From the NCBI GenBank assembly GCA_963575745.1, contig CAUYUJ010000131.1, forward strand, positions 62,001 through 117,808: 55,808 nt of DNA. Direction: 5' to 3'. The stretch comes from Prorocentrum cordatum (taxonomy: Eukaryota). A model generated the notes under the pieces. The model saw nothing but the letters and a program-made list of their open reading frames with translations. It searched no databases and was not told where the DNA came from. The translations under genes and the position numbers were made by a program. Shown here one piece after another: positions 16,196 through 35,808 of the stretch; the stretch's first letter is position 1; every line of letters begins with the position of its first letter.

Positions 16196-17055
16196 ATCCA
16201 TCTCTGTTCAGTCCGCACGACAATCTTGTTCTCAGCCCGTGTGCTGTCTTGTTTCCAGTCCGCACGCCGCCTTGCTAATTGCGCTGTGCGTTTTGATTCT
16301 CCTGTGCGTTGAGCCCACATTTCTTTGCCGGGGTATCTGGCCATCCTCGTTGCTTGTCCTCCGTCATTGCGCAAGCGCTCGTTGTGTGTTCGATGTTGCT
16401 TGCCACGCTGTGGTCCTCACTCGTATTCCCTTCGCTCCGCGCTGCCGCCGCCCCCCCGCTCCGGTGCCGCGCTGTGGTGTTTTGGTGCCGTGCCGCGTCG
16501 TGCCGTGCTCCGGGTGTCGCTGCCGTGCCTGCTGTGCCGTGTCGGTGCTGTGTCTTGGGCTTTGTCTCCGTGCCGTGTCGGTTGCGCCGTGTTCCGGTGC
16601 CGTGTCGGGCCGTCGCCGTGCTGTGCTCTCCTACCCGGGGGCGTTGCTGGTTTCTGTGCCGTGGAGTGTGGTGCCGAGCCGTGCTGCATGGTGTGGGGCA
16701 CCTCGCCTTTTGTCGTCCCCGATCGCCGGCCGTCTGTCGGGCAGCTCTTGGCTGTCACGGGAGGGGGTGGGTGCAAGAACCGGGGCTGGACGAGTAAATT
16801 TGCAAAGTCTTGCATGGCCCTGGCTGCTTGACAGGCTTCGAGTCCGGGTTTGGTGGGCTGCCCCGAGCCCTGGCCCGCTGTCCGGCCGCCGCTGTCTGGG
16901 CGCGCGCGGGGAGGAGTGCCGGATCCTTTCCAATACCAGGCTCCCGCGGCCGCGGGCTTTTCGTGTCCAAGTTGGGGTCTGCGGCGCAGGGGCCCCTGTC
17001 CCAGGTAGACGCCCGGCGCGCCCCGGCCCTGCAAGAGGCGTGGCTGGCCGCGGCC

Positions 17056-19056
17056 ATGCCGCCCCAGAGACGCCGCCGCAGCGAGCATGGGCGCGATGAG
17101 CGCCGTAGTCGCAGTCGGAGGCGGCGCGGCAGCACCAGCAGCAGCTCGCCCCCGAGGCGCCACCGCAGCCGCGCGAGGCCCAGGCCCAGCAAGTCCCAGT
17201 ACCCCTCGGGCCGCGGCCGCAGGTCCTCCAGCTCAAGTTCCTTACCCCCGCTGGCCAGCGGCGAGCCGCTGAGCGAGGTTGGCGGTGGTGGCGCGCCCAG
17301 CCCGTGCAGGCTCTCCGTCGCGCTGGGGGAGCTCATCCCGACGTCCCCGCCCCCGGGTAACTTCAGCATCCCTGGTGTGACGGGCAAGGCGCGGCCGGCG
17401 GCCCCGGCTCACGCTTTGTCGCCTGGCACCCCGCAGGCCGCTCGTCACGCCAGCGCGCCGCCTGGGCAGTGGCTGGGGGCATCACCGGCGTCGCCGCCGC
17501 CGCCACCGCCGCCTCCGCCGCCTCCGCCACAGGAGGACCCGCCGCAAGCCCCGTGCACCCCGACACCGGTTGCGTCTACCCCCTCCGGGAGCCCACGCCC
17601 CGCCTCCCCAGGGCCGCCGACCCTGAGCCCGCCGCCGCTTCCGGCGGGCTGGGAAAGCCGGCGCGACCCATACAACGGCCAGCTCTACTTCATTCACAGG
17701 ATCACGAAGGAGAGCCGTTGGGACCACCCAGCCGCGTCGCAGGCAGCGCCCTCGGATGGCGCGGGCGTGCCCCGTGCCTCCCCCGTGGCCGCGCCAGCCA
17801 AGGCGGCCCCGCGCGCGCAGCCCGACCGCGGCGGGGAGGGGCTGCCGACTGCCGCGGCTCAGGCTGCCCAGGCAGAGGCCCCCCCCAGTGAGCTCCAGTC
17901 CCTGAAGGAGTCCTTGTTCAAGCTCCAGCGCGAGAGGCCGGCGTGGGATTGTTACGCGGGCGAAACAGGCCAGAAGGTGTGGCTCCAGAGGAGCACCGGT
18001 GCAGTCCAGGCGACGGAACCCCACGAGGTCGCGGCGCACTTAGCCGAGGTTGCTAGCTTGCGGAATCGCCTGGCAGTTCTGGAGGGCCGCGCCCCGCCCG
18101 CGTGCCCGCCCACCAGCCAGTCGATAGCGGCGTCCACGCGCGTTGACTCTCAGACACGCGAGGTGCTCAATAGGAGGTTGGAGGCGGAGTCTGTGGAGCA
18201 GGCCCTCCTCCAGGCAGGGCGCGACAGTCTGCACAGCGCTGGCGCGCCTGCCCCGGCGGCGCCGGCGCTAGCCGAGCCCCGTGCCCCAGGCTTGGCTGCG
18301 GGCGCAGGCCCGCTTTCTTCGTTCATGCTGCGCGCGCAGCCCGCGTTCGTTGACCCCCGGGCGCGCGCGGTGGTCAAGAGGAGGCTGGAGGAGGAGGCTG
18401 TTGAGCAGGCCCTCCTCCAGGCGGGGCGCGACGATTTGCGCGTTGTTGGCGCCCCCGCCCGCGTGGCGCCGCCGCATGGCGCGCCTCAGGCCCCCGGGGC
18501 TCCGATCGCTGACCCGCTTGCCTCGGCCACGCTGCGCACGCAGGCAGAGCTTGATTCGGCAGTGGGGGGTTGGCAGCGCCAGCTGCGCGCCGCTGTGGGA
18601 GAGAGTAGGGACGGCCGCATCAGCATGGAAGCGGCGTTTTTGGTGAGCGCGTGCACGGCTCAAGAGGATCTCCACCGCATTGTCGGTGCGATGGGGGTCG
18701 ACATCGTGCATGGTGACACTCGCGGCCGAGCCGCCGCAGCAGCGCGCCCGGCCCCTCCCTTTGCCGTAGTGACGGGCGACTTCCATCAGCCAGGGCTGGA
18801 AGTCACGTTTAAAGTCGCCCCCGTGGCCAAATTGAGCATCCAACTAGTCAATAAAAGACAGGGCCGCGTGGTGGTCAAAGGCCGCCGGGGGGCCATGGAA
18901 GCGAATATCGAGGAGCTGCTGATGTATCTAGGGCCTGTGACCGAGCTGCGCGCCGCGGCGCCACCTGTGCAGCAGGTGGGCACCCCCGTGCCAGCCGTGC
19001 GCTTGTCGGCCCGGGAGCGCCTCGTGGGCGCCGAGGGCCTGCCCGGCTTTCAGTAG
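17056..19056 (+). CDS. LINE ORF1-A, 666 aa: RS-rich N-terminus, poly-Pro, WW domain, WW-like/coiled coil, conserved C-terminal domain
   Basis: PLPAGWESRRDPYNGQLYFIHRITKESRWDHP is a canonical WW; C-terminal GDFHQP..EVT...IQLVNKRQGR.VVKG.R...ANIEELLM.LGPV.E is conserved with copy B. Confidence 0.85.
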   Translation: MPPQRRRRSEHGRDERRSRSRRRRGSTSSSSPPRRHRSRARPRPSKSQYPSGRGRRSSSSSSLPPLASGEPLSEVGGGGAPSPCRLSVALGELIPTSPPPGNFSIPGVTGKARPAAPAHALSPGTPQAARHASAPPGQWLGASPASPPPPPPPPPPPPQEDPPQAPCTPTPVASTPSGSPRPASPGPPTLSPPPLPAGWESRRDPYNGQLYFIHRITKESRWDHPAASQAAPSDGAGVPRASPVAAPAKAAPRAQPDRGGEGLPTAAAQAAQAEAPPSELQSLKESLFKLQRERPAWDCYAGETGQKVWLQRSTGAVQATEPHEVAAHLAEVASLRNRLAVLEGRAPPACPPTSQSIAASTRVDSQTREVLNRRLEAESVEQALLQAGRDSLHSAGAPAPAAPALAEPRAPGLAAGAGPLSSFMLRAQPAFVDPRARAVVKRRLEEEAVEQALLQAGRDDLRVVGAPARVAPPHGAPQAPGAPIADPLASATLRTQAELDSAVGGWQRQLRAAVGESRDGRISMEAAFLVSACTAQEDLHRIVGAMGVDIVHGDTRGRAAAAARPAPPFAVVTGDFHQPGLEVTFKVAPVAKLSIQLVNKRQGRVVVKGRRGAMEANIEELLMYLGPVTELRAAAPPVQQVGTPVPAVRLSARERLVGAEGLPGFQ

Positions 19057-19198
19057 GTGAACGCCCTGTCAGGCGTCGGCGGGGGCCGCTAGCTGCGCCC
19101 CCCGTCGGGGCAGGGGAGTGGCAGTTCCTTTCTTTTTTGTTTTTTGTGCTTTCCTTTTCCTACCAGCGCCCGCCGCTCCTGTCCCCTTTTTTTATAAA

Positions 19199-19380
19199 TC
19201 GGCCTCGCGAAGCCTAGATGCGTTGAGCAGCGCGCGCTCACGCAGATCTGCATGCGCTTGCCCGACTTGCAGGCTAGGGCTCTAGCGTTAATTCATCCTG
19301 CATAAAAAGATTGCCTTTTGCATTGCGTTTGGGAGAACGGCCAGGCCTGGGCGCGATGCGAACGGTAAAAGAGGCCTCGG
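19199..19380 (+). ncRNA. Conserved structured inter-ORF RNA element, copy A
   Basis: 66-nt core differs at only 5 positions from copy B; compensatory and G-U-consistent changes; long flanking hairpin. Confidence 0.65.
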
Positions 19381-19955
19381 AGCTTGCTTGCGCTGCCTCT
19401 CTTTGTTGCCTTGCATTGTCGCGCGCGCGGGCCAGGGGCAGTTGCTGAGCATGGCAAGTGCGTGTTGCGCGCGCACGGGTGCGCGTTGCATGGGGGTGCG
19501 CGCTGGTCTGCGCTCCGCTCGTCCTGTCGTCCTGTGTCCTTGGTACGTCGCTCGCCATGCAAGTGTGACAGTGCAGGGAATTGTTCGTCGTCGTCCACTG
19601 CCCCTCTGAGCCCTAGTAGCGAGGCGCCTTCTGGTTCCCCGCCTCCCCCTCATGCCGAATGCCGCCCGCCCTCGGGCGAGTCGGCCTACCCCTGCTTAAG
19701 GTGTCGTGGAAAACGCGATGGCGGACCCCGGGCCGTCGGATCGTGGAGTGGCCTGCGGGCCCAGGGTTTGGCTGACCCTGGGCCACCGGACCCTGGGACG
19801 TGTCGGTTGGCTTAGGGCCGGGGCCCCCCTCCCCCTCCCCCTCCTCCTCATGGCCGCGTTGGAGCCCGTGACCCCCCCCTCCCGCCCTCCCCCCAGCAGC
19901 CGCTCTCTGAGAAACGGGGGGGGGAGCTGCCCGGCCGCGCGTCGTGGGCCGAGCG

Positions 19956-22900
19956 ATGGCGACTGAGGCTACCAGCTGCGTGCGGCGGGACCAGCGGGGA
20001 GAAACCCAGCGGCAGTTGAGCCCTTTTCGCGCCTTCTGCCAGGCGTGGCTGGCGCGAAGCCCCCGCAGGCTGGAGGCCGCGGCGGCCCTGCGCGATGCCC
20101 TGGCACTCTTGGAGCTCTTGCCGCCGCGCCCTGACCACATGCTGCAGGAAGGGGGGTCCGCGCTACGAGCGCTTTGGGCCTTTGCGGATGAAGTGGCTTA
20201 TATCTTGCGGCGAATCCTCGTTCCGCCCTTGCGTGCATTGGGACAGCATGCCGCAGCGGTAGGTTCGCCATTTGCCGGACCTCCGCCTGTCGAGGAGGTA
20301 GGCCCAGAGCGTGAGGCCTCCTGTGTCCCCCCCGCCCGCTCCGTCCTTCGTCTTGGCACTCTGAACCCGGGCCGGTGCGGTTTTCTCCAGTTAGGCGCCG
20401 ACCAGCTTCTGGAATGGCGTCTCGAGGCAGTCGCTTTTGCCCTGGACGCTCAGTCGGTTGACATCTGCATCCTCCCGGGGGCGCGGTTTCCCGAGGGCGC
20501 AACGCTTCCCCAAGGTTTCCCATATTGCTGGGATGGGGCGCGCTCGGGGTCGTGGGATTCGGTAGGCATCTTTTTCCGCCCCGAGGTAGAACACATGCTG
20601 CGCCCGGTGCCGGATTTTTCTTCAAACCGGGAGCAGTGGTTTGAGGTTTGGGGCGGAGGGGCCGCGCCCAGTCCTGCTGTCATCCTTTGCGCGTTCTACC
20701 CGAAGCACGGCGGGGACACAGACACCTGGAAGTCCATTGTAGCGCATGCGGCTTTATGTCGTCATCGGTACCCGCGGGCGCGCTTGATTTTAGGCGGAGA
20801 TGCAAATGTCCATTTGGACTATCTTGCTGACCATGTGGAGCCTTGTAGCTGCGCGCACTGCAAGCAATCCCCTGCAGACAGAGAGATCCAACAGTGGCTT
20901 GTGGCTGCAGGGCTTGGGGCTTTTAACCCCCCCGCGCCAACGCATGTGTCTGGCACCTGCATCGACCTTTTCATAGGCATGAGAGATTCGCCCCTTCCTG
21001 TCAAGGTCCTGCCGGATTTTATTGCGCTCTCCGACCACCGACTCGTCATGGCAGAGGTGCCCTGCCAGTTCACGGCCCCGTGGGCGGCGGGCTACGGGAG
21101 GGTCGCCTGGACGTCCGGACCCAGGTGGGACGAGGGCCTGAGGGAAATCTCCGGCACCCTCAGTGCGCTGAGCGAGAGCGTGGAAGCAATTACATGCGCC
21201 CCTTGGCTTCAGCCACCGTGGTTCGGAGGCAGGGCCAGCAGAGTGCAAAGGCGCGCCGTGGTTAACGTTGCGGCTTGGGCTCGCGATGCCGCCTACACCA
21301 TGGTGGGACACGCAGCGGGTGCCACCAAGGTGATAGGGGGCAAGCGTCGCCTCTCGCAGACCACTGCGCGTAGGTTGCTGAACCCAGCGTGTTTCACCTC
21401 GCATCAAGAGTTTAAGCTTGAAGTTGCGCGCGCAGCGTGGGGGGAGCGTAGGAGAGCCGCCCACCGCTATTTGCATTTGCGCGAGGCCAACCCCGGGGCC
21501 GCGGAGAGGTTCCTGTCGAGCTTCTTCCAGGTGCGCACCCGTTTTGAGGTGAGGCTGTCGGACCCGTCCACGGGGGCCGCGCTTACGCCCAGTGCGATGG
21601 TTGAGGCTGTCAGGCAGGATCTGTTTGCACGCGATCGCAATGACTTTGAGCAGGATCCGGGGGCCGAGGAGGCCATGGCACGGCAGGTTTCTTTGATCCG
21701 CAGCGCGGGTGCCCTCGAAGGCGCACCAGCCCGAGCTCCACCTTACACGGATGACGAGGTGCATGCTGTGTTGAGCGCTCTCAAGCCAGGCAAACGCACA
21801 ATTCATGGGTGTTACGCCGCCTTGCGCGCAGAGTCACCAGCGGGGGTACGGCTGACCAAGGCCCTAGTGAACCTCGCTCGCGCCGCCGGCGTGACCGCGA
21901 AAATCTGGTCACTCAGGCAGATCACCCCATTGCGTAAGTGCGGCCCAACCACAGTGCGCGCACTCTCCGCCCTGCGGCCAATTTCCATTGCAACGGAGAT
22001 GGCATCGGTACAAGACGCTCTCTGGATAGCCCGAAATAGCGGTGCGCTGGAGGCGTATTGTGGGCCTTGCCAGCAGGGGGGAGTCGGCGACGCCCTCACC
22101 CTAGTAATCGGCCTCGTCGTGCACGCCCAGCTGCGGCATGCGCAGGGCCTCCACACTTGGTGGGCTCTAGCAGATGGCAAGTGGGCTTTCGACGTGGCGT
22201 CCCGCCACGCCATGTTGGTGGGCGTGTACAACGCCGGAGTCCGCGGGCCTGATTGGCTCATTTTGGACGACGTGTTGGCGCAAGACCATCAGTGCCTGTC
22301 TTTGCATGGGCTGCTGAGCCCCGTTTTTATGCTTTCGCGCGGTACAGCTCAGGGCAGGCGGTTTTCTGTGCACGCTTTTAACACCCAGCTCCGTGGGCTT
22401 GCGGATGACATCGCAAAAGTGCTCCCGGAGGGGTGCAGCACGATTGTGCCTCCATTTGCTAGGGCAGCGCTCCTTGACGCGGAGGAAGTCACGCCGCCGG
22501 CGCAATGCGTTGAGCCGCCGCGGGGGGAGCTGCAGCTTGACGGGGTCGTGCAGGAGGTGTCGCTTTTGGCGGCGGCTGAGGAGTCGCCGTGGCCCCAGGC
22601 GAGGCGCTTCCTGCGCGGCGTCCTCAGCGCGCTGTCGTCGCAGGCTGATCGGGTTGCCGTGACAGAGCGTTTGGGGGCTTACCACGTGGAGTCACCGCAA
22701 TTCGTGGATGACATCACAACGCCCTGCCCGTCAGAGGGGGCCGTTAGGGCCGTTCTGTCGGAGGAAGAGTGGTCGGCGTGCAGCCGATACGCACGGCGCG
22801 TGAGGGCCCGCTTCAACTATGATAGGGGGAAGACGGCAGTCCTGCCCCTTCTGGACGCCCCCCCGCCCTTGCTAGCTGGAGCCCCTGTGGTGCGCGCGAA

Positions 22901-24029
22901 AGGGCTTCTAGGAGTTCTAGTGGACTCGGGCCTCACGTTTCTGCCGTTGCTGCACAGTACGCTCGCGAGGGGCAGGTCGCTGTTTGACGAACTTTTGCAG
23001 GCGGCGGAGTGCGGGGGCTTCTCCATCCCAGTTGCCGCAGCTCAAGTCCCTCCCCGCATTGAGTCGGTAATCCTATACGCTTCCCCGTTGTTGGCCCTAG
23101 CCGAGGGGGCTGAAGGGGCCCTCAACCGCTCACAGGTAGAGTGGGGCCGCAAGCTGCTGGGCTGCAATGCTGGCCCGCCCGTGCGTCACAGCGTGGTCGT
23201 GGCCCAATGCGGGTGGCCTTTGAGGCTGGGCACGAAGTTTCTTGAGCGTGCCTTGCTAGCGCGAGCCAGGCTCGCAGTCCTCCCGCTCGACCACCCGGCG
23301 TCCCGAGCCTGGCAGGCATCCCGGTGCCTGCACGCCCCCTCTTGGGTTACTGCGGTAGCTGCGCTCGCTGGCCGCCTTCCGTCGCCGCCAGTGCAACTGG
23401 ACCGACACCCGGCATGCGCTGGGGAGCAGTTGGAGGCTGCGCGCGCCCATCCAGCGAGGCGCAGGGCCCTCCTGGAGTGGTACCGCTGGCAGGTCGTGCG
23501 CCCAGCGCTGTTGGAGTATGACCGGCAAGCATTCAGGAAGGCAGCGTCATGTGTTCTCCCGGCGTTGCGCCGTTCCTTCGCTGAGCTTTGCCCGGGCCCG
23601 TCCCTCCCTGACTGGAATCTTCTGGGCTGGGAGTCGTCTCCAAACTTTTGGAAGCATTACCGGTTGTGGGCCGTCATACGCATGACGGGCTGCTGGCCCC
23701 TTGCCGTGCTTGGCCAGGGTGGGCTGCCAGCCACGCTCTCGCGGTGCGGGGCATGCGGAGCGTCGAATGTAGCAGTCGACCATCCCCTGGTAGCGTGTCA
23801 GGCCACGGTTCAGCACCGTGCCCTCCTTGCGCGCGACGGCCCGCCCATGCAGGGCGCCGCCCCGGAGTTCGCCTTACAAGTCCTTTTTTCCGAGGGTCTC
23901 CCGTCGCGTGCGCGTGCTGCGCACGTCAGTTACGTGGGCGCTGCAGTTTTGCAGGCTGCTTGGCCAGCGCCGCCCCCTCCGCCTCCGCCTCCCCCTCCGC
24001 CTCCCCCCCCGCGCGCCCCCCCGAGCTAG
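19956..24029 (+). CDS. LINE ORF2-A, 1357 aa: APE-type endonuclease, reverse transcriptase, C-terminal Cys/His knuckle
   Basis: EN: GTLNPG, AFYP, GGDANVH, CIDLF, LSDH. RT: LRPIS, ADGKWAFD, GTAQG, QFVDD, LLGV. Knuckle: CGAC..DHPLVAC. Confidence 0.93.
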   Translation: MATEATSCVRRDQRGETQRQLSPFRAFCQAWLARSPRRLEAAAALRDALALLELLPPRPDHMLQEGGSALRALWAFADEVAYILRRILVPPLRALGQHAAAVGSPFAGPPPVEEVGPEREASCVPPARSVLRLGTLNPGRCGFLQLGADQLLEWRLEAVAFALDAQSVDICILPGARFPEGATLPQGFPYCWDGARSGSWDSVGIFFRPEVEHMLRPVPDFSSNREQWFEVWGGGAAPSPAVILCAFYPKHGGDTDTWKSIVAHAALCRHRYPRARLILGGDANVHLDYLADHVEPCSCAHCKQSPADREIQQWLVAAGLGAFNPPAPTHVSGTCIDLFIGMRDSPLPVKVLPDFIALSDHRLVMAEVPCQFTAPWAAGYGRVAWTSGPRWDEGLREISGTLSALSESVEAITCAPWLQPPWFGGRASRVQRRAVVNVAAWARDAAYTMVGHAAGATKVIGGKRRLSQTTARRLLNPACFTSHQEFKLEVARAAWGERRRAAHRYLHLREANPGAAERFLSSFFQVRTRFEVRLSDPSTGAALTPSAMVEAVRQDLFARDRNDFEQDPGAEEAMARQVSLIRSAGALEGAPARAPPYTDDEVHAVLSALKPGKRTIHGCYAALRAESPAGVRLTKALVNLARAAGVTAKIWSLRQITPLRKCGPTTVRALSALRPISIATEMASVQDALWIARNSGALEAYCGPCQQGGVGDALTLVIGLVVHAQLRHAQGLHTWWALADGKWAFDVASRHAMLVGVYNAGVRGPDWLILDDVLAQDHQCLSLHGLLSPVFMLSRGTAQGRRFSVHAFNTQLRGLADDIAKVLPEGCSTIVPPFARAALLDAEEVTPPAQCVEPPRGELQLDGVVQEVSLLAAAEESPWPQARRFLRGVLSALSSQADRVAVTERLGAYHVESPQFVDDITTPCPSEGAVRAVLSEEEWSACSRYARRVRARFNYDRGKTAVLPLLDAPPPLLAGAPVVRAKGLLGVLVDSGLTFLPLLHSTLARGRSLFDELLQAAECGGFSIPVAAAQVPPRIESVILYASPLLALAEGAEGALNRSQVEWGRKLLGCNAGPPVRHSVVVAQCGWPLRLGTKFLERALLARARLAVLPLDHPASRAWQASRCLHAPSWVTAVAALAGRLPSPPVQLDRHPACAGEQLEAARAHPARRRALLEWYRWQVVRPALLEYDRQAFRKAASCVLPALRRSFAELCPGPSLPDWNLLGWESSPNFWKHYRLWAVIRMTGCWPLAVLGQGGLPATLSRCGACGASNVAVDHPLVACQATVQHRALLARDGPPMQGAAPEFALQVLFSEGLPSRARAAHVSYVGAAVLQAAWPAPPPPPPPPPPPPPPRAPPS

Positions 24030-25679: not shown

Positions 25680-26130
25680 TCCTGCCTTCGTGCTCGCGGC
25701 GCTCGACCAGCGGCCGGCTGTGATGGAAGAGAAACTCTGAGACTTGGGCGCCACAGGAGGGCGGAGGCAGAGGTAGCCGGGACCAGAGGGGAGCCCGGTG
25801 AGTGGCTGTCGCGGGGCACGCGTAAAGGGCGTGCCAGATGTCCACGTCCAGCGCGCCGCAGCTGCCGCAACGCGGCAGGGTGGTAACGCAAAGCGGAGCT
25901 CCCAAGACCTGAAGCGGCCAGCAGCCCGACACGCGAACAACCGCCCACAAGCGAAAGTGAAGCCACGAGGCAGGCCCAAAGGCACGGTCCAGCATGTCCC
26001 ACTGCAGCCCTGGCAACCCTATAGGCCAAGCCAAGAAAGGCAAGCGAAAGACAGGCAAGGCAGCGGCAGTCGCCCGTTGGAACGCGGCAAGATTAAGCGC
26101 CCGCGAAGGGCCAATCAACCACGTCCGGGA
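25680..26130 (-). pseudogene. 3' end of ORF2 of an older antisense member of the same LINE family
   Basis: FRLWAVVRVSGCWPLQVLG...LPRCGSCGALDVDIWHALYACPAT aligns with YRLWAVIRMTGCWPLAVLG...LSRCGACGASNVAVDHPLVACQAT of ORF2-A. Confidence 0.88.
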
Positions 26131-27031
26131 GGCTAGGTTTGGTGATCGGGGCAATTTATTTTGTTCGAAATGTAGGCCTGTTGTCTGCTCTTTTATTGAA
26201 TCTTGTGCCATCGTGGATTCTGAATCCAAAACAGCGATCTTGCGAACGCTTGAAGCCTTCATCGATCGGGATGCTGGCTCGGGCCGCGCTATAGATTCAG
26301 AGGGCCGCCATCACTCCGGTGTCTACCAGAGGCGTACTTGTCGCATTCTTTTTAATCAGGATCGCACATCTCGCCGCCTTGAAACACAGTTGGCTCCGAT
26401 TTTACAGGACGACTTGGCGGCAACAAAGATTGGGCAGATTTTTAGTGATGCGAATTTTTCGGCTAAGCGGTCCGAAGTGGATAACGAAAATCCAGATTGG
26501 GAAGAGCCGGCTGCCGGAGATGCCGTCCCAACGGTGCCCGGTAAATGGTTTGATTTCTTCTGCGGGTTTCCTAGCGTAGGTCCCTTCAAGTCATTATTTT
26601 GCTTGTATTGGCTCGGGACTACGGCTGTATCTGAGACCATTCGGATGGAGTGCAGACATTCCTTGGAAACTCATGTGATAGCAGACTGGGGCACAGGGCG
26701 TGCCCTGGCCGAGATAGCCAAAGACTGTGACCCAGATGGAAGAGTCCGAGCGGCGCTTCCGTTGAAGCAGCGGGATTCTTCCGCTCACGCTATCCGGCGT
26801 TGCTCTATTCTTCTCATTATTTTGTATTATTCCCCATTTGGTGATGCTATGCTGCGCGTTCTTCTCCCGCATGCGCGTGCCCACCGTGTCTGGAATTTCT
26901 CTCTTTTGCATTTGGAATTTGTGTTGTGTGAGCTGCGGAAAGCTTCAAGCAGTGTAGGCAGATTCAAGTATTATACTGACACTCCGTTGGAGCACCCGAG
27001 TGATAAAGTCGTTGTTCCCTCCTGGAGCTAA
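26130..27031 (+). CDS. ORF0-B (5'-truncated); aGPT-Pplase1/5hmU-DNA kinase helical domain-like
   Basis: Frame of track ORF 25994..27031. Motifs in order: TCRILFNQDRTS, GFPSVGPF, IADWGTGRALAEI, LHLEFVLCELRK. The ATG at 25994 lies in the antisense LINE and is probably not the real start. Confidence 0.6.
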
Positions 27032-27241
27032 GGGAATTGTTGCTCATTTGGTGATTTGTGTTTGGATATGTTTTAGCCGCTTGCCCAACAGTAATGCCAT
27101 CCATCGCGCGTTGGATATTCTTGGTTTTGGATATCGTATGACCCAATCAATGTTGAAGCAATTTGAGGGGGTAGTTATTATTTTGTTGTGCTTTTGCAGT
27201 GCCTATGATTGTGGCGGCTTGGGCCGGGGGCTGGAAAGAGC

Positions 27242-27464
27242 GCCCGTTGCTTTGCTTCTCTGCTTGTCTGCGTGAGTCGATTCCTCGAGGGAGCGTGCCG
27301 GCAACACGGCGGCAGCTGGGAAGATGGCGGGGGCGGCCATCTTCCCACCCCGTCTGGGGGTGCCCACCCCGGCGTTCGGCCGGGGGGACCGGGGGGACGT
27401 GGGGCATGCGGCAGGTGGGAAGACGTGAGGGGCGCCCATCTTCCCACCCCCCTGGGCGTCGCCG

Positions 27465-27501
<37 letters not shown>

Positions 27502-28520
27502 CGTGGTCGTCGTCGCCGTCGTCGTCGTCGTCGTTGCCGCCGTCTTTCGTCGTCGCCATTGTACCAGCGGCGCGTGGAGGGCTCTGCCAGGCGCCCCAAA
27601 GGCATGGAGCCCGCAACGCGTGCGGACGGGAAGCAGGGGGGACGCTGTCGACCCCCCACCAGCCCACGGCCGCTGCCGGGAAGAAGGTGGGGGCAGCCAT
27701 CTTCCCACCCCACCTCCTGGCGTGCCCCCCCTCTCGGCGTCCGGGCTGGGGGTAACTGGCGTGTCTGACGAGGCAGGCTGCTGGTGGGAAGATGGAGGGG
27801 GCGCCCGTCTTCCCACCCCCTTGTCGCACTTGCGCACGGCCGAAGCTGGGAAGATGGCGGGGGCGGTCGTCTTCCCACCCCCTCTCGGGTGTGCCCCCCG
27901 CGCACGGTCGCAACCGGGAAGATGGCGGGGGCGGCCGTCTTCCCACCCCCCTCCGGGGTCCCCTCTCGGCGCCCGGGTGGGGGAGACCAAAGTGTCCGAC
28001 GTGGGACAAGCGGCTGGTGGGAAGACGAGGGGGGCGCCCATCTTCCCACCCCCCCCTGGCGTCGCCGTCGCCTCCCCCCCCGTGCTGCCCCCCCCTCCCT
28101 CCTCCCTTGCCTGTCCCTCCCCTCTCCCCTCCCTCCCTCCCTTCCCTCCTCCCTGGCCTGCCCCCCCCCCCCGGCCGCCAAGGGAGATCTTCCCTTTTTC
28201 CGCTGGCCACCAGCGCGCCAGGCCGCAGGTGGGAAGATCGCGGGGGCGGCCGTCTTCCCACCCCCGGCCGCCGGTCGTCCCCCCCTCCTTCCTTGCTGCG
28301 CGCCAGCACCCCGCATCGCCGGCAGGGTGCTGTAGGGGCAGGGCTGTCCCGCTCTCCAGGCGCGGGTGGGAAGACGAGGGGGGGCGCCGTCTTCCCACCC
28401 CCTGGCTGGCCTCCCCGACAGCCGCCCGTCTGGGGGGGTGTCGCCCTCCCCCGCTTCGCAGGCCACCAGCGCGCCGGGCCGCAGGTGGGAAGATCATGGG
28501 GGCGGCCGTCTTCCCACCCC
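27242..28520. repeat. Array of 10 palindromic ~36-bp repeats (GGGAAGA...TCTTCCCACCCC) with variable spacers; includes (GTC)n at ~27457-27555
   Basis: Copies begin near 27316, 27414, 27677, 27783, 27846, 27915, 28016, 28228, 28365 and 28484. Confidence 0.9.
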
Positions 28521-28883
28521 CCCTCCTCCGAAGCTTGCGCCCGTCCCCGCAAGCGTATCCAAGTCATGTTTGTCGTCGTGATAACGGAGGTTCGGATTCC
28601 ACGGAGCCCTGCAATCCGTACGCTGTGCGTTCCTGCCGCCGCCCTCCCCCCTCCCCCGCCGTGCTGTGCGTGTGCCGTGTGTTTGTTCTGGCCGTGTCGT
28701 GTTGTGCCGTGGGGTTGCCGTGTCGTGTTGGTGCGGATTGTCGCGTTTCTCACATATGCAGGACCGGACCTCCGTCTTTATTTTTCCCGGTGGAACGTGT
28801 GCTCAAGGGCTTGCCACGCCACGCGCCGCCCGGTCCCTGCCCGCGCCCCGGAGCCCGCAACCCGGCCCCTCGGCCCCGCCGCG

Positions 28884-30518
28884 ATGCCGGTGGAGCGCAA
28901 CAGGAACCGGGACCGGGAGCGGAGCCGTAGTCGTGATCGGGACCGGGACCGCGACCGGGATCGCGACCGGGACCGCGACCGGGACCGGGACCGGGACCGG
29001 GACCGTGGCCGCCGGGACCGTCGGCGCCGCTGCAGCTCAAGGTCTTCTGAGCAGCCGGCCCCTGAGCAGACGTGTAGCCCGACAGAAGTGGCTGACTCGC
29101 CAGAGCGTGGCTTGTCGGCTGAGCTGAGTGCCATGCTGCCGTCTCAGCCAGTTACCCCGCGCCCGATTGAGGCCCCCCCCGGGGACTTCAGCGCTTTCCC
29201 CGGGGCGGCGCCGAAGGCTCGTGCAGTGCTCTCCCCGGCGCCCCCGGCGCGCGGCTTGGCGGTCTCTCCGCCGGAGGGGTGGGTCGGCGCGGCGCCTTTG
29301 TCGCCGCTGCCACCGCCCCCGCCGCCGCCGCCGCCGCCTGTCGCAGCGAATTCACCGGTGAGGCGGCAGCCCGCCCCCGAGGCGAAGTCCCCGGGCCCTC
29401 CGGACTTGTCGCCGCCGCCGCTGCCGGCGGGATGGGAGTCTCGCCGTGCGCCGTCTGGGGCTTTGTTCTTCCAGAACAGGCGTACAGGGGAAAGCCGGTG
29501 GGACCACCCGGGCACGGGCCCTGCTCTCCCAGTTCCGGCCCCTGCCCGCGCCACCGCAGACGCATCTGCTGCTCCGGAGGGGGCGCCGCCGGGGGGCGCG
29601 GCGACCCCGCCGATGGCAGCGTGGGCGAGGGCCGCGTTGCAGCTCACAGCGCCTGTGGTGGTGGCACCCGTGGCGGCTTCACCTGAAGCGATCCGTTCGC
29701 TGCGCCTGGAGCTGGAGGCCCTTCAGGCAGCGCGTCCGGATTGGGAGGAGTTTCGCGACCCCACCGGGGGCCAGATTTTGTGGTTCCAGAGGTCTACCCA
29801 GCAGGTGGTGATGCACCGGCCACCTGAAGTTGCAGCGTGGATCTCCCGCACCGCCGCCTTGAATGAGGAGATCAGCGAGCTATCGCGGTCCCGCGACCGC
29901 TCGCCTGCCGGGGTCCCGGCCGGCCCCGCTTCGCAGGCTCCCCCCCTGCAGGACGCGGCGGCTGGTGGCGCTGTGCCAAATGACGCCGCGCTTGCGACCC
30001 CCGCCCAGTCGCTCGCGCGTTTCACCAGGGCATCTGAGCTAGATGGGGCCGTGGGTGCCTGGCACAGCAGGCTCCACACTGCGGTGGGGGGGTCGACGGA
30101 CGGTCGCGTTGCCATGGAGGCGACGTTCCACACGCGGTGCTTGTCCCAGGGCGACCTGCATGCAATCGTCAGGGCGATGGGCGTCCACATCGAGGCTGCG
30201 GCTCCGAAGGGGCGCGGGGCACGGCCCGCCCTGGCCCCGCCTTTTGGCTTTGCCACGGGCGATTTTCATCAGCCCGCCGTCGAAGTCACTTGGAGGACGG
30301 GGCCGTTACTGAAGCTCACGATACAGCTCGTGAACAAGCGGCAGGGGCGCATTGTCGTCAAGGGCAAGAGGGCGGCTTTCGACGCCAATTTGGAAGAGCT
30401 CTTAATGTTTCTGGGGCCTGTCGCCGAGATTAGGACGGCTACGGCCCCGGCCCCGGCAGTGCACGGCGCCCCGGCCCCCCCGCGCGTGCGGGCGCGGGAC
30501 ATGTTGGGCCCTGGCTAG
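28884..30518 (+). CDS. LINE ORF1-B, 544 aa: RD/RS repeat, poly-Pro, WW, WW-like/coiled coil, conserved C-terminal domain
   Basis: PLPAGWESRRAPSGALFFQNRRTGESRWDHP; collinear with ORF1-A. Confidence 0.85.
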   Translation: MPVERNRNRDRERSRSRDRDRDRDRDRDRDRDRDRDRDRDRGRRDRRRRCSSRSSEQPAPEQTCSPTEVADSPERGLSAELSAMLPSQPVTPRPIEAPPGDFSAFPGAAPKARAVLSPAPPARGLAVSPPEGWVGAAPLSPLPPPPPPPPPPVAANSPVRRQPAPEAKSPGPPDLSPPPLPAGWESRRAPSGALFFQNRRTGESRWDHPGTGPALPVPAPARATADASAAPEGAPPGGAATPPMAAWARAALQLTAPVVVAPVAASPEAIRSLRLELEALQAARPDWEEFRDPTGGQILWFQRSTQQVVMHRPPEVAAWISRTAALNEEISELSRSRDRSPAGVPAGPASQAPPLQDAAAGGAVPNDAALATPAQSLARFTRASELDGAVGAWHSRLHTAVGGSTDGRVAMEATFHTRCLSQGDLHAIVRAMGVHIEAAAPKGRGARPALAPPFGFATGDFHQPAVEVTWRTGPLLKLTIQLVNKRQGRIVVKGKRAAFDANLEELLMFLGPVAEIRTATAPAPAVHGAPAPPRVRARDMLGPG

Positions 30519-30796
30519 TCTCGCCGCCCCACCCCCGCTTGCCTCGCCAGCAAGCGCTCGCGGCCCGGTTGGAGACCGGTGTCCTCGTTGAAGCCTCCTA
30601 GTGAGTCGTGTGCCCCACTCCAGCGCCCCCCTCTAATGTCGGCGTCGCCAGCGGGGGAGGGGGTGGGCGTGCCCCCGTCGCCCCCGCTGTCGGGGCGGAC
30701 AGCCGAAGCTCCTGTCCAGTTTGCCTGTCGCACTTGTTCTTTCCTCGATCTCCTTATGCCCTGTCATTGCCCGGGCTACGACGTTGTTTTTTCTCT

Positions 30797-30976
30797 TCGG
30801 CCCCGAGAAGCCTAGATGCGCGATGCCGCATGAGCTCGCGCAGATCTGCACGCGCTTGCCCGACTTGCAGGCTAGGGCCCCAGCGCTAATTCGTCCTGCA
30901 TAAAGAGTGTCTTTGGACGTGGCGCTTGGGGAGCGGCAAGGCCCGGGCGCGTTGTGCAAAGGAAAAGGCGCCTCGC
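30797..30976 (+). ncRNA. Conserved structured inter-ORF RNA element, copy B
   Basis: Homologous to 19199-19380. Confidence 0.65.
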
Positions 30977-31184
30977 GCGGGAAGCCGTCCCACTTACATT
31001 GTCTTCTGCTCGCGCTGTCTCGAGCTCATTGCGTGCAACGTCCGGCTTCGCAGCGATGTCCCCCGCGCTTATCTTGCATGCAGCGCGTGCTCACATGGCG
31101 CAGTCACCTTGTCCTTTCTCTGTTCGCGGTAGCACGCGCGTGCGGGGTCATGCTTCACTGCGTCTTTGTTCAGCTTCCACGTCA

Positions 31185-31587
31185 GCCCGTTGCTTTGCTT
31201 CTCTGCTCGTCTGCGTGAGTCGGCTCCTCGAGGGAGCGTGCCGGCAACACGGCGGCAGCTGGGAAGATGGCGGGGGGGGCCATCTTCCCACCCCTCCTGG
31301 GGGTGCCCACCCCGGCGTTCGGCCGGGGGGGCCGGGGGGACGTGGGGCTTGCGGCAGGTGGGAAGCAATGCGTGCGGCTGGGAAGCAGGGGGGAGGCTGT
31401 CGACCACCCACCTGCCCACGGCCGCTGCCGGGAAGACGGTGGGGGCGGCCATCTTCCCACCCCACCTCCTGGCGAGCCCCCCCCCTCTCGGCGTCCCGCT
31501 GGGGGTGACCAGCGTGTCTGACGAGGTCAGGCAGCAGGTGGGAAGATGGAGGGGGCGCCCGTCTTCCCACCCCCTTGTCGCACTTGC
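31185..31587. repeat. Second copy of the palindromic-repeat cassette (3 full and 1 half repeat)
   Basis: Close match to 27242-27833 with an internal deletion; absent from the copy A spacer. Confidence 0.88.
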
Positions 31588-31845
31588 ATGTCGCCGTGTG
31601 GTCGTGTCTTTCCCAGGCCACAGTGTTGCGCGCACGCAAGTCCCCACGTGCTTACATTCTATTGTCCCGTTGTCCCCTTCTCACGCCGTGTTGTGCTTGC
31701 ATGCAAAATCCTGCCTTGCAGCGGCGATGCGGCCCCCGCCCCTTGATTGCTTGCTGCGCCGTCGTCGTCGTCTCGCATTTCCCCTACCCCGTGCCACCCC
31801 TGCTCCGATAGGGCTCGAGCTAACGCCCTCTGGAGCGCCGAAGCG

Positions 31846-34800
31846 ATGGATCGCCGACGCGCCCCCTGGGAGGAGGAGGCGGCGACGCGCTCGCGGATGC
31901 GAGCGGAGGCCGCGCAGTCCCAGGCCCCGCTTCGTGAGAAGGCCATGCGGTGGTTAGGTGCGCCCCAGAGCCGCGCGGAGTTGGCGGCCGCCTCCAGGGA
32001 CTTCCTAGCCCTGCTGCACCTGGCTCCGGCGTGGCCAGATGGGGTGACTCGCCATGCGGGCACCGAAGCTGGCCCCCTATGGGCCTTCGCAGTGGAGCTG
32101 CAACATTTTCTCGCGCGCGCGCTGCTCCCGTCGCTGATGGCGCTTCCCGGGATCTCTCGCATTGTGGGGGGGCCCTACGTTGGGGGAGTTCCCCAGGCTG
32201 CTGCCGCAGAAGCGGCTGGGCGCGTCCTGGGGCCTGTCCCGCCCGCGCGCCCACTCTTCCGCATTGCCACGCTGAACCCGGGCCGCACGGGTTTTCTGCA
32301 CCTTGGTACGGACTTAATTCTTGAGTGGCGCCTGGAGGCAGTCGCACACGCTCTTGTCGAGCATGGCGTTGATGTCTGTATCCTGCCTGGCTCGCGGTTC
32401 CCGCCGGGCGCGTGGTTACCGCCAGGCTTTCCTTTTGTTTGGATTGGCCCGACGTCCACGGAGTGGGACACCGTGGGCCTCTTCGTGAGGCCCGAGTTGG
32501 AGCAGGCTGTCAGATTCGTTCCGGAGGCGTCGTCGGCGCGTGAGCAGTGGTTTGAAGTTTGGCCCTCCGCGTCGGCGCGCTCTCCGTGCCTCGTTCTCTG
32601 TGCCATGTACCCTGTCCATGGAGGAGACAGGGACACGTGGTCCTCTATCGTTGCCCATGCCGCGGAGTTTCAGGCCAAGTACCCGCTTGCCCGGCTTTTA
32701 ATTGGGGGTGACGGGAACGTGCACCTCACATACGTCGTCTCGCATGCGGTGACCTGCCGCTGCCTGCACTGCTCCCAACGCGGCCCTGACAGAGATATCC
32801 AGGCACTGCTGGACAGGGCTAACCTCAGGGCGTTCAACCCCCCCAAGCCGACCCACTCCTCCGGCACGTGCATTGACATTTTTATAGGTTTGCGCGGCGA
32901 CCCCCTACCTGTCCAGGTGGTGGAAGATTTCATAGCCCTTTCGGATCACAAGCTCGTCCTACTGGATGCGCCCTGTCTGGTCGAGCCGCACTTGGCCGCT
33001 GGCTTTGGTCGAGTAGCGTGGACCTCAGGTGCTGAATGGGAGGCCAGCCTCAGTGAGGTTGCGCCAACTTTGGCCGCGCTCGCCCACGCGGTTGAGCTTC
33101 TCCTGGAGTCCCAGTGGTTGCGCCCGGCCTGGCACGGAGGCTCGGCCACGAGGCTCCATCGCCGCGCAGTCCTAAATGTGGCTGCATGGTGCCGCGATGC
33201 AGTGTACACTATTGTTGGCCATGGCTCAGGAGCTGTCCGCCTTGTCGGGGGACCCGCGAGAGCGAGGGCACCAGCTGCGGTGCCGCTAGCCCCCTCCGCT
33301 TTTTCTAGCTTTGCTGACTTTAAACGGGCGACTGAAGAAGCAGCCTGGCAACAGCGTCGGAAGTCGGTGCACCGTTACCTACGCCTCCGGGAAATTAATA
33401 AAGGCGCCGCGGAGCGCTTCTTGTCTGGATTTTTCAAGGACGCGGACAGATTTGATATCCAGCTCGTCAGCCCAGTGACAGGGCGCACCCAGTCCACGAG
33501 CGAGATGCTCGATGCAATTCAGGCGGACCTGTTGGGGCGCGCTCAGAACGATTTCCCCCAATGCCCTGTGGAGAGGGACCGCATGTCTCGCGTGGTCTCA
33601 GGGATCCGGCGCGCAGGAGCCGCGTCCGGGCCCGAGCGCGCGCAGCCACTGTACAGCGAGACCGAAGTCGAAGAGGCCATTGCCTTGTTGAAGCTTGGTA
33701 AACGGACTGTGCATTTGTGCAACGCAGCGGTGAAGGCGCCAGTTCAAGAGGGTTTCCGCCTAACGCGGGCGCTGTTGAACTTGGGCCGCCGCCTTTGTGT
33801 CACGTCTCGCTTCTGGTCTCTCCGGCAGTTTTCACCTCTTCGGAAATCAGGCCCTCCCGTGGTCAGAAAGGTCTCTGCCCTTCGACCCGTGTCCTTCGCC
33901 AGCGACATGGCGTCTGTGCAAGACGCTTTGTGGATAGCGCGGAATGGGGCCCTCATTGAGGCATATTGCGGTGCAGCCCAACAGGGCGGGGTTGGAGACC
34001 CTGTATCCCAGGTTCTTGCCCTTGTCCTCAATGCGCAGCTACGACGCGCGTTTGACTGCCCAACCTGGTGGGCCATAGCTGACAATAAATGGGCTTTCGA
34101 TGTCGCCTCGATCGACGGCATGCTCCTCGGTGCATACAGCGCCGGGGTCGAGGGGGCCGATTGGCTCCTCTTGGACGACATCCTGGCCCAAGACCAACAG
34201 ACAGTGGGGCTCCACGGCCTGCTCTCTCCGGTCTTTTTCTTGAAATGTGGAACTGCCCAAGGTCGTCGCTTCTCCGTGCATATTTGTAACGCGCAGCTAC
34301 GCGCGCTGCGTGACGAAATCTCGGAAGCACTACCCGGTGGATGCGCTTCCTGCATCCCGCTGCTGATCAGAAGCGCCCTTTTGGATGCGGCCATTGCTAC
34401 GCCCCCCGCATGTAGGGAAAGCATGCCCTGGCGAGACCTGCCGGTTCAGGAGTTTAAGTCGAGTGTTGCGGGCATCTTAGAGCAGGCGGCCCCCCTTGCG
34501 GCGTCTGCTGAAGAGCGGCTCCGTGGCGTCTTCCAACGCCTCCCGGTGGAGGCGGACCGAGTGGCGCTTGCCGAGGCTACAGGGTCTTTCCATTTGCCTC
34601 CGGTTCAATTTGTCGACGATATCACCACGCCGTGCCCGTCTGAGGGCGCCGTGCGGGCAGTGATCTCCGATGAGAGCACCTCGGCATGTAGTCGCTATGC
34701 GTTCCGCATGAAGTCCTCGTTCACGTATGAGCGTGACAAGACATGCGTTTTGCCCTTGCTTGGTGCCCCGATCCCAGGCCGACCAGGTTGCCCAGTCGTA

Positions 34801-35808
34801 TCTCAGAAACACCTCCTCGGTGTTCTTGTCGATTCAGGGCTGACTTTTGGCCCGCTGCTGAACGAGCTCTGTGCTATCGGCGACTCCTGTTTCAAGAAGT
34901 TGCTTTTCGCGGCGGAGAGCGGAGGTTTTTCTGTGCCGGTGGCGGCCGCGCAGGTGCCGCCTCGTGTTGAGGCAGCTGTTCTTTTTGCGTGTCCGCTCCT
35001 TGCAGGAGTCCCTGGCGCCGAGGCTCGTTTCAACAAGCTTCAGGTGGGGTGGGGCCGCCGACTGCTGGGATGCCACGGCGGGCCGCCCATCAAGCACGTC
35101 GTGGTGGTCGCGCAATGCGGCTGGCGCATGCGAATGGGCACCCGGTTCATCGAGCGTGCGCTCATGGCTCGGGCTCGGCTAACCGTGCTCCCGCCCGACC
35201 ATCCTGGCGCAATCATGTACCGTGCTTCGCGCGCCCTCTGCGTCCCCACCTGGCTCTCGGACGCAGCGGCGCTGGCTTCCCGCCTGCCAGACCCGCCTCC
35301 TGACCTGGATTCTCACCCTTTGTTTCCCCCGGAGGCCCTCCGCGCTGCCCAGCTCGACCCAGCCCGAAGGAAGGTCCTCCTGCGGGAGTATCGGCGCTTT
35401 GCCTTGCGCCCGGCACTCCTCAGATACGACCAGCAGGCCTTCGCAGCGGGGGCCTCGCGGGTTTTGCCGAGCCTCAATCGGTCCTTTGCAGCGCTGTGCC
35501 CTGGTCCAGCACTCCCCGATGAGGGCATGCTGACCTGGGAGCCGGGGCCCTCCTTTTGGAGGTACTACCGTCTTTGGGCAGTCGCCCGGATGACGGGGGC
35601 ATGGCCGCTGCCTGTGTTAGGCGAGGTGGAACTCCCAGAAACCATCCCAGTGTGCCGTGCATGCCGCAGGCGCGGTGTCTCGCTCCGGCATGTCCTCGTT
35701 CGCTGTCCGGCCTTAGACCGGGCGCGCAAGGCACTGCCAGGCGTGGGGGAGGGCCGCGTTGGGCCGTCCGTCACTCCTGACTTGCTCTTGCAGATGCTTT
35801 TTTTGTGA
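31846..35808 (+). CDS. LINE ORF2-B: APE endonuclease, RT, knuckle; frameshift in a T run near the C-terminus
   Basis: ATLNPG, GGDGNVH, LSDH, LRPVS, ADNKWAFD, GTAQG, QFVDD, CRAC..RHVLVRC. The homologous tail (FCEGAEPVARASHIVFVG) continues in another frame to ~35960. Confidence 0.92.
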   Translation: MDRRRAPWEEEAATRSRMRAEAAQSQAPLREKAMRWLGAPQSRAELAAASRDFLALLHLAPAWPDGVTRHAGTEAGPLWAFAVELQHFLARALLPSLMALPGISRIVGGPYVGGVPQAAAAEAAGRVLGPVPPARPLFRIATLNPGRTGFLHLGTDLILEWRLEAVAHALVEHGVDVCILPGSRFPPGAWLPPGFPFVWIGPTSTEWDTVGLFVRPELEQAVRFVPEASSAREQWFEVWPSASARSPCLVLCAMYPVHGGDRDTWSSIVAHAAEFQAKYPLARLLIGGDGNVHLTYVVSHAVTCRCLHCSQRGPDRDIQALLDRANLRAFNPPKPTHSSGTCIDIFIGLRGDPLPVQVVEDFIALSDHKLVLLDAPCLVEPHLAAGFGRVAWTSGAEWEASLSEVAPTLAALAHAVELLLESQWLRPAWHGGSATRLHRRAVLNVAAWCRDAVYTIVGHGSGAVRLVGGPARARAPAAVPLAPSAFSSFADFKRATEEAAWQQRRKSVHRYLRLREINKGAAERFLSGFFKDADRFDIQLVSPVTGRTQSTSEMLDAIQADLLGRAQNDFPQCPVERDRMSRVVSGIRRAGAASGPERAQPLYSETEVEEAIALLKLGKRTVHLCNAAVKAPVQEGFRLTRALLNLGRRLCVTSRFWSLRQFSPLRKSGPPVVRKVSALRPVSFASDMASVQDALWIARNGALIEAYCGAAQQGGVGDPVSQVLALVLNAQLRRAFDCPTWWAIADNKWAFDVASIDGMLLGAYSAGVEGADWLLLDDILAQDQQTVGLHGLLSPVFFLKCGTAQGRRFSVHICNAQLRALRDEISEALPGGCASCIPLLIRSALLDAAIATPPACRESMPWRDLPVQEFKSSVAGILEQAAPLAASAEERLRGVFQRLPVEADRVALAEATGSFHLPPVQFVDDITTPCPSEGAVRAVISDESTSACSRYAFRMKSSFTYERDKTCVLPLLGAPIPGRPGCPVVSQKHLLGVLVDSGLTFGPLLNELCAIGDSCFKKLLFAAESGGFSVPVAAAQVPPRVEAAVLFACPLLAGVPGAEARFNKLQVGWGRRLLGCHGGPPIKHVVVVAQCGWRMRMGTRFIERALMARARLTVLPPDHPGAIMYRASRALCVPTWLSDAAALASRLPDPPPDLDSHPLFPPEALRAAQLDPARRKVLLREYRRFALRPALLRYDQQAFAAGASRVLPSLNRSFAALCPGPALPDEGMLTWEPGPSFWRYYRLWAVARMTGAWPLPVLGEVELPETIPVCRACRRRGVSLRHVLVRCPALDRARKALPGVGEGRVGPSVTPDLLLQMLFL

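Follow-up and report, generated by a model that had tools for sequence, protein, structure and literature searches.

A gene fragment between two LINE-like elements of Prorocentrum cordatum represents an undescribed dinoflagellate protein family, possibly remote kin of helix–hairpin–helix glycosylases

We analysed a 55,808-nucleotide stretch of contig CAUYUJ010000131.1 (positions 62,001 to 117,808 of the forward strand, assembly GCA_963575745.1) of Prorocentrum cordatum, referred to as the window in the following. It contains two divergent elements, LINE-A and LINE-B, which resemble long interspersed nuclear elements (LINEs) and are arranged in tandem on the same strand. Upstream of LINE-B, and sharing strand and order with its open reading frames (ORFs) ORF1-B and ORF2-B, lies a further ORF of 345 residues, which is the subject of this study (Table 1). 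A preliminary description, made from the letters alone, took it for an ORF0 of the retrotransposon and assigned it to the helical family of the 5-hydroxymethyluracil (5hmU) DNA kinases, HMUDK_hel (PF18723 in Pfam, formerly aGPT-Pplase1; the related ADDT family is PF18724, formerly aGPT-Pplase2). The aGPT-Pplases were reportedly defined by Iyer et al. in 2013. We show below that the ORF is a copy of a gene from an undescribed nuclear family, which is real and conserved. On balance we favour the view that this new dinoflagellate family is remotely related to the superfamily of helix–hairpin–helix (HhH) glycosylases and aGPT-Pplases while being separate from PF18723, and that the copy in the window is 5'-truncated, intron-free and most likely retroposed or fragmentary, rather than an ORF0 of the LINE.

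Only a part of the mechanically defined ORF belongs to the gene. The sequence shared with relatives begins at residue 46; when the two best homologues (P0002 and P0003) are compared with the window by tblastn, similarity starts at 26132 and 26129, respectively, and in both cases reaches the last codon before the stop (27029–27031). The span 26130–27031 given in the preliminary description agrees with these limits, and the best phmmer E-value, 1.3e-144, is far beyond chance. The N-terminal extension crosses a LINE fragment in antisense orientation and stands outside the gene family. The homologous part corresponds to residues ~125–423 of the 423-residue P0002, that is, to the second CxxC of a zinc ribbon and the entire helical domain, so that the copy is devoid of a start codon, of the first ~124 residues and of half of the zinc ribbon. 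The frame is intact and all the residues that are invariant in the family are present, which suggests that the copy is either young or still used.

The block differs sharply in composition from its surroundings, as had been noticed: its G+C content is 0.496 (26130–27241), compared to 0.633 in the preceding 540 bp and 0.718 in the repeat that follows, and its edges are abrupt. At third codon positions, the G+C content (GC3) is 0.50 in the frame of the ORF against 0.705 in ORF2-A. No poly(A) is visible in the flank that follows the stop codon.

Table 1. Positions, strands and supporting evidence of features in the window
Feature	Position	Strand	Evidence or remark
Spliced leader, perfect 21 nt, with relict copy	13409-13444	+	~0.9 kb upstream of ORF0-A
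ORF0-A, 506 aa	14359-15879		unrelated to the gene copy
LINE-A	16810-24029	+	
ORF1-A, WW domain	16810-19056	+	Pfam WW
ORF2-A	19944-24029	+	
Inverted fragment of LINE ORF2 C-terminus	25690..26058	-	tblastn: ORF2-A residues 1205-1327, 40% identity
Mechanical ORF, 345 aa	25994..27031	+	
N-terminal extension to an ATG, 45 codons, non-homologous	25994..26128	+	similarity starts at residue 46
Coding fragment with stop, homologous to the family	26129..27031	+	tblastn, phmmer, alignments, AlphaFold2 model
Motif RRTCRILFNQDRTS	26330..26371	+	hhalign (-mact 0.05) against HMUDK_hel RFCNVFRELDRVT: R, C, D, R, T/S at equal spacing
FPSVGPFKSLF, HhH-like hairpin	26567..26599	+	pairs with G-x-F of HMUDK_hel; best-scoring hhalign stretch
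WGTG loop (W187 nearly invariant, G188 invariant)	26687..26698	+	pairs with invariant G-P-G of HMUDK_hel
CELRK (C267, E268, R270, K271 invariant)	26927..26941	+	spacing as in invariant C295-E296-x-D298-K299 of HMUDK_hel
Flank after stop, possible 3' untranslated region remnant	27032..27241	+	composition (G+C 0.457); ends at G+C-rich repeat
G+C-rich repeat with (CGT)n array (27457-27555)	27242..27833	.	self-blastn, TRF; bounds the block on its 3' side
LINE-B	27792-35808	+	
ORF1-B, WW domain	inside 27792-30518	+	Pfam WW
ORF2-B	31747-35808	+	

Contigs of several sequencing runs match pieces of the region 26396–27070 with 0–2 differences; they come from two metagenome runs (X2 and X3) and from a run of another named organism (X5). 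The same runs show 16–20 differences per 150–184 bases to the adjacent LINE fragment, and their coverage is too thin to separate the same species from an unusual conservation. The contigs of the four runs considered overlap the stretch only piecewise.

A word-indexed search with the ORF returned three proteins: P0002 (70% identity), P0003 (405 residues, 60% identity, from Karenia brevis according to its source) and the fragment P0004; the identities of the first two extend over 87% of the query. A phmmer search against 1.84 billion representative sequences retrieved 44 proteins at E ≤ 1e-3, including 24 at E ≤ 1e-10. Two of the 44, P0010 (5,319 residues, with Calx-beta-like repeats) and P0041, were false positives driven by repeats, and were removed. 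The remaining matches are mostly encoded on short ENA contigs of 1–2 kb, and P0020 is an Effrenium voratum protein from a contig of 267 kb. Querying with the alignment in a further large search yielded five proteins, all of them already known. The named members in the sampled data are dinoflagellates only (K. brevis and E. voratum). A scan of IMG/VR gave 63 pattern matches, none of which was confirmed, hence no viral relative at that sensitivity. In the ESM Atlas the whole protein matched only zf-BED-type clusters, with scores of at most 0.79, and no usable match was obtained for the helical part.

The full-length members (366–472 residues) consist of an N-terminal C4 zinc ribbon, an acidic linker of variable length and a two-lobed, all-helical domain that extends to a conserved P-x-W end. 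The N-terminal C-x-x-C...C-x-x-C gives weak matches to zinc ribbons of the Elf1 type (E 0.019–0.13, seven PDB sequences). Despite their weakness, they point consistently to the zinc ribbon of the transcription elongation factor Elf1; they concern the N-terminal ~120 residues of P0002, P0003 and the gene of metagenome contig L019, a region that is missing from the copy in the window. On L019 (2.6 kb) the gene, at 1061–2197, is complete (378 aa), intron-less and alone; on another metagenome contig, L020, it is interrupted. No LINE ORF is present on either of these short contigs. P0004 departs from P0002 before RDPEGLL, and P0167 does so after QFPAE, while the window copy is continuous at both places; this suggests that the gene of the closest relative contains introns, and fits a processed copy in the window.

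In 11 divergent members, F153, F157, G188, G238, C267, E268, R270 and K271 are invariant (numbering of the window protein), and W187, F264, P297 and W299 nearly so. C-E-x-R-K is the most conserved element of the family. It sits on the C-terminal helix, in a place that matches that of its counterpart in HMUDK_hel, and in neither family is any element more conserved than the C-E-x-x-K helix. The four motifs that were put forward initially are all present in the ORF and in the order announced: EAFIDRD...YQRRTCRILFNQDRTSRRL, GFPSVGPF, VIADWGTGRALAEI and FSLLHLEFVLCELRK. The aGPT-Pplase1 consensus with which they had been compared does fit genuine members: the protein of phage Epa5, for instance, reads FCNVHREDDKVT, YPYLGDF, GPGAARGL and LREVEHTLCEFDKY.

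With hhalign at a permissive threshold, these motifs are collinear with those of HMUDK_hel: R-R-T-C-R-I-L-F-N-Q-D-R-T-S pairs with R-F-C-N-V-F-R-E-L-D-R-V-T, G-P-F with G-P-F, W-G-x-G with G-P-G, and L-H-L-E-F-V-L-C-E-L-R-K with D-I-E-H-T-L-C-E-F-D-K. The G-P-F hairpin, together with the G-x-G loop, forms the best stretch of the alignment. The profiles used here were built from 37 family sequences, from 16, and later 81, HMUDK_hel sequences (named phages and IMG/VR loci) and from seven ADDT sequences. Global alignment (hhalign -glob) gave a meaningless alignment of the ends, which was discarded. Around the first motif, the DSSP assignment is the same in the family model described below and in the model of a genuine HMUDK_hel protein (HHHHHE------HHH-HHHHHHHHHH).

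The hidden Markov model (HMM) of HMUDK_hel matches 5 of the 37 family sequences, with a best per-sequence P of 1.6e-4 on the CExxK helix; three of the 37 are matched on this C-terminal helix, with P between 1.6e-4 and 4.5e-3. For the accepted link between HMUDK_hel and ADDT, the best P-values in the same test are 0.029 and 3.8e-5, hence comparable to those of the family.

The fold of the protein is confidently predicted by AlphaFold2 from a 36-row alignment (mean predicted local distance difference test, pLDDT, 87.1; predicted template-modelling score, pTM, 0.85). The predicted structure comprises 14 helices; residues 113–132 are disordered. In Foldseek, no entry of the PDB or BFVD matched the family model at E ≤ 1e-3. 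BFVD comprises a few hundred thousand entries. Among the 50 PDB matches listed, only five are long, and all five have helix–hairpin–helix folds of the glycosylase type. They are, with the value listed for each match and the aligned length in brackets, Qng1 (7u07, which ranks first; 6.0, 179), human QNG1 (7ugk; 5.6, 179), the 5-PmdU glycinyltransferase PaMx11 gp46, which is an ADDT (8z2m; 5.0, 179), NTHL1 (7rdt; 4.5, 157) and AGOG (1xqp; 4.3, 167). The 45 others align over 53–89 residues (all but one over 72 or fewer) and are mostly proteins of the helical-repeat type. The control model of a genuine HMUDK_hel protein has 7u07, 7ugk and 8z2m as its top three PDB matches, in the same order, so that the structures predicted to be nearest to the family are those predicted to be nearest to HMUDK_hel. 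Four BFVD entries occur among the 50 matches listed for both models: PhiW-14 gp72, Lucky3 gp54, a Fortunato ADDT protein and A0A516L2W2. The search thus did return HhH-type structural matches, a solved ADDT included, in a pattern that mirrors that of the control, and the closest branch looks like that of Qng1 and the aGPT-Pplases (HMUDK_hel and the amino-acid:DNA transferases).

The direction indicated by the preliminary description was therefore right, as regards the HhH-type and aGPT-Pplase-like structural matches, and the membership it proposed was not. The ORF and 36 members of the family have no match to PF18723, PF18724 or any glycosylase model in Pfam, even at E ≤ 10, while the controls behave as expected (8.1e-56 for M6 gp55 against PF18723, whose gathering score is 25 bits, and 1.4e-46 for M6 gp51 against PF18724). 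Nothing relevant was found in PHROGs for 10 family members, and a profile search of the PDB sequences returned no glycosylase, the only rows being those of the Elf1 zinc ribbon for the N-terminus.

HMUDK_hel proteins such as gp55 of Pseudomonas phage M6 are like the family in having ~300 residues, a predicted all-helical, two-lobed fold, and L-C-E-x-x-K at the C-terminus; R-x-C-(6)-D-R-x-T/S, the putative G-x-F hairpin and the putative G-x-G loop are collinear with it in the hhalign alignment, whose P is marginal. The family lacks their invariants F42, N44, R47, E48, D204, D216 and R229 and the segment with N81 and Y125, and its acidic disordered linker occupies the place of their middle segment. 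In the N-terminal lobe, only the D of the invariants is shared between F-x-N-x-x-R-E-x-D and the R-T-C-R-I-L-F-N-Q-D-R-T-S of the family; at the C-terminus, where HMUDK_hel has L-C-E-x-D-K, the family has L-C-E-L-R-K, with C267, E268 and K271 kept at equal spacing and D replaced by R. The family also has an additional N-terminal zinc ribbon and is eukaryotic. The phage genes have as neighbours a gene for a P-loop 5-hmdU DNA kinase, for a pyrimidine hydroxymethylase or for an ADDT, whereas the copy in the window is surrounded by LINE ORFs and repeats. The lack of a Pfam match, the absence of most invariants of the N-terminal lobe and of the N81/Y125 segment, and the lack of kinase or hydroxymethylase neighbours indicate that the family does not belong to PF18723.

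Several results weigh against even a remote kinship. The hhalign comparison of the family with HMUDK_hel is marginal (P 0.056 with 16 sequences and 0.068 with 81), and that with ADDT gives P 0.44, while the accepted pair HMUDK_hel/ADDT gives 8.5e-4 and 3.7e-4. Shuffles of single columns never reached the local score of 22.1 (0 of 60), whereas 5 of the 60 in which blocks of 15 columns were left intact did. The Foldseek TM-scores of the family model against phage HMUDK_hel models (0.32–0.38) correspond to a large distance: the HMUDK_hel control scores 0.6–0.8 within its own family, 0.43–0.53 with ADDT and 0.25–0.40 with classical glycosylases (query-normalised), so that the family is no nearer to HMUDK_hel than classical glycosylases are. 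The evidence from sequence is suggestive, being on a par with the HMUDK_hel–ADDT link in one test and weaker in another, and is not significant alone. Alternatively, the resemblance may be superficial: the family would have an all-helical domain of another kind, such as that of a zinc-ribbon factor that binds DNA or RNA, and would share the short motifs by coincidence; we consider this unlikely, yet it is the alternative to be taken most seriously. It does not easily account for five long structural matches that all fall in one superfamily, with a top three identical, in order, to that of the control, nor for four collinear motifs, a C-E-x-x-K of identical spacing which is the most conserved element on both sides, and HMM P-values similar to those of an accepted link.

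If the remote kinship with HhH glycosylases and aGPT-Pplases is correct, the intact, full-length proteins would bind DNA and flip out a pyrimidine. The HhH DNA glycosylases have a catalytic aspartate, about 20 residues past the hairpin, whose role is described in PMC9881137; there is no invariant aspartate after the hairpin in the 11 divergent members, which makes classical glycosylase chemistry unlikely. In Qng1, the queuosine-5'-monophosphate glycosylase (DUF2419), the catalytic aspartate sits in the HhH motif, according to the Qng1 paper, and the family has no matching invariant aspartate; we detected no sequence or profile similarity between the two. The Qng1 paper also describes β-hairpin insertions that obstruct the DNA cleft.

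The conserved cysteine would rather act on C6 of the base, in the way of Cys247 of PaMx11 gp46, which is proposed to attack C6 of 5-phosphomethyl-dU (PMC8989533 and PMC11472151). The same papers report that in the clade 2 enzymes, the ADDT, the corresponding cysteine and a nearby glutamate are needed, and that their mutation abolishes the activity of M6 gp51 and ViI gp247; the E-T-V-L-C of M6 gp51 contains the catalytic Cys and Glu (Lee et al., PMC8989533). In an hhalign alignment that is not significant, this motif pairs with E263-x-x-L-C267 of the family. Within the ADDT (M6 gp51, ViI gp247 and PaMx11 gp46, or PUGT), the residue that follows the cysteine is a lysine in M6 gp51; in the family it is a glutamate, as in clade 1. 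No equivalent of Asp175 of the ADDT was identified in the family.

The likely substrate would be 5hmU or a derivative, since 5hmU replaces a large share of the thymine of dinoflagellates and is enriched on transposons. According to PMC11572971, it amounts to 22–45% of thymidine in three dinoflagellate species and, in Amphidinium carterae, is enriched on LINEs and other transposable elements (TEs). We regard as quite unlikely, though worth stating, the bolder proposal that dinoflagellates encode their own cysteine-dependent, aGPT-Pplase-like DNA-base enzyme, made of a zinc ribbon and an HhH-like domain with the invariant C-E-x-R-K, which acts on 5hmU or on a phosphorylated or otherwise activated derivative; copies carried by LINEs could then blunt the silencing of transposons that depends on 5hmU.

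The copy in the window, truncated at its 5' end and lodged among LINE debris, is most likely retroposed or fragmentary, and it is probably non-functional despite its open frame. Like other retrogenes or LINE-mediated retrocopies of dinoflagellates, it derives from a cellular gene, is intron-free and 5'-truncated, and lies among LINE fragments; unlike them, it was found to have neither a poly(A) tail nor a target-site duplication or spliced-leader relict. Elsewhere in the window, on the (+) strand, a perfect spliced leader of dinoflagellates is directly followed by a relict copy (three mismatches) and a further GCTCAAG (13409–13444); none of 100 shuffles matched. Such an arrangement typifies a recycled retrogene or a retro-copied trans-spliced RNA, and indicates that retroposition of mRNA has happened here. 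An inverted LINE fragment abuts the truncated end of the gene copy.

It is also conceivable, although unlikely, that the copy was co-mobilised with LINE-B: a read-through polycistronic transcript containing the host gene, ORF1-B and ORF2-B would have been reverse-transcribed by the LINE machinery and truncated within the host gene, which would then be transduced cargo and not a LINE gene. The common strand and order of the three ORFs, and a 5' truncation of the kind that is typical of LINE insertions, speak for this scenario, as does the parallel layout of LINE-A, where the unrelated ORF0-A, a (CGT/GTC)n array, ORF1-A and ORF2-A follow each other; the spliced leader upstream of ORF0-A might indicate where a retro-copied composite RNA had its 5' end. 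On the contrary, the repeat between the block and ORF1-B recurs between ORF1-B and ORF2-B, which suggests that later insertions have reshaped the region; moreover, the 5' neighbour of the copy is a separate, inverted LINE fragment, and the homologues on L019 and L020 are not accompanied by LINE ORFs on their short contigs.

It is in our opinion very unlikely that the fragment is the terminal exon of a host gene that is intact and has introns, with one or more upstream exons outside the window or too divergent to be detected and the LINE fragment in an intron. An AG (26130–26131) directly precedes the first homologous codon, the frame and the invariant residues are preserved, and L020 illustrates that genes of the family can be interrupted. 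One X5 contig matches the window from 26123 onward, its first 36 letters being different, as would be the case for a spliced RNA (the kind of run is not on record). However, the HMM of the N-terminal part of the family finds no N-terminal exon when run against the whole 55.8-kb window translated in six frames (1,434 peptides; best E 2.5), the 26 kb upstream are occupied by a LINE of the same strand and other ORFs, and the relative P0025 is continuous across the equivalent point.

As to a genuine, LINE-encoded ORF0, that is, a regular retrotransposon gene for a helical protein, which perhaps counters 5hmU-based silencing, it has next to no credibility left: the position upstream of ORF1 and ORF2 would suit it, as would the enrichment of 5hmU on LINEs and other TEs and the activation of 5hmU-marked TEs in Amphidinium carterae by a dioxygenase inhibitor that lowers 5hmU (PMC11572971), but LINE-A, whose ORF2 is 55% identical, has an unrelated ORF of 506 residues at the matching position, the relatives are stand-alone genes with apparent introns in some species, the copy has lost its start and 124 residues, its G+C content and GC3 are sharply unlike those of the LINE ORFs, and it is bordered directly upstream by an inverted ORF2 fragment and directly downstream by a recurring repeat.

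The label ORF0 is thus not supported, and neither is the idea of a repeated capture, considering that the homologues are stand-alone, that the copy is 5'-truncated and that ORF0-A is unrelated. The ORF had been called very divergent from ORF0-A, which was an understatement: no similarity between them is detectable by tblastn, and hhalign gives P 0.36. The comparison of LINEs relies on the two copies of this window.

With respect to dinoflagellate 5hmU, what has been described so far is limited to its oxidising enzyme and its link to transposon silencing (PMC11572971). Our search of the literature, in which the aGPT-Pplase papers were judged by their title or the start of their abstract, did not bring to light any reader, eraser or further modifier of 5hmU in these organisms. 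The family, which is conserved and apparently expressed and which combines the predicted fold and the cysteine motif of the thymidine-hypermodifying enzymes of phages, is a concrete candidate for a 5hmU-directed protein. If it were a cysteine-dependent enzyme acting on 5hmU or an activated derivative, this would imply an undetected hypermodified thymidine, or a dedicated reader or eraser of 5hmU, in a eukaryote. The interest lies with the family, the truncated copy alone being of little interest. For annotation, the locus is a warning that an ORF located ahead of a dinoflagellate LINE may be a retro-copied host gene and not belong to the element.

Last, we describe the elements that surround the copy. 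The ORF1 proteins of both LINEs have a WW domain (Pfam E 6e-10 and 3e-9). The ORF2 proteins (~1,355 residues) are 55% identical to each other and have a weak endonuclease/reverse transcriptase match (Exo_endo_phos_2, E 0.07). A further inverted ORF2 fragment lies at 36717–37121. The G+C-rich repeat has a second copy at 31185–31587, which is 91–96% identical; in 27242–28500 and 31185–31587 the repeat consists of units of ~68 bp and has an internal palindrome (GGGAAGATGGCGG...CCGTCTTCCC); several of its frames translate as WEDGRP..LPT or GGKMAAPAIFPP. P0004, which is from another source, carries a similar peptide, GKIRGDAVFPPPG, ahead of its homologous part, so that this repeat family may be widespread in dinoflagellates. 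The window also contains an AC-rich microsatellite that reads THTHTH or CVCVCV at 10.2–12.4 kb (low-complexity tract 10200–12450), an A+T-rich island at 41000–42000 (G+C 0.364) with internal direct and inverted repeats, and a strongly skewed low-complexity tract at 45000–46100.

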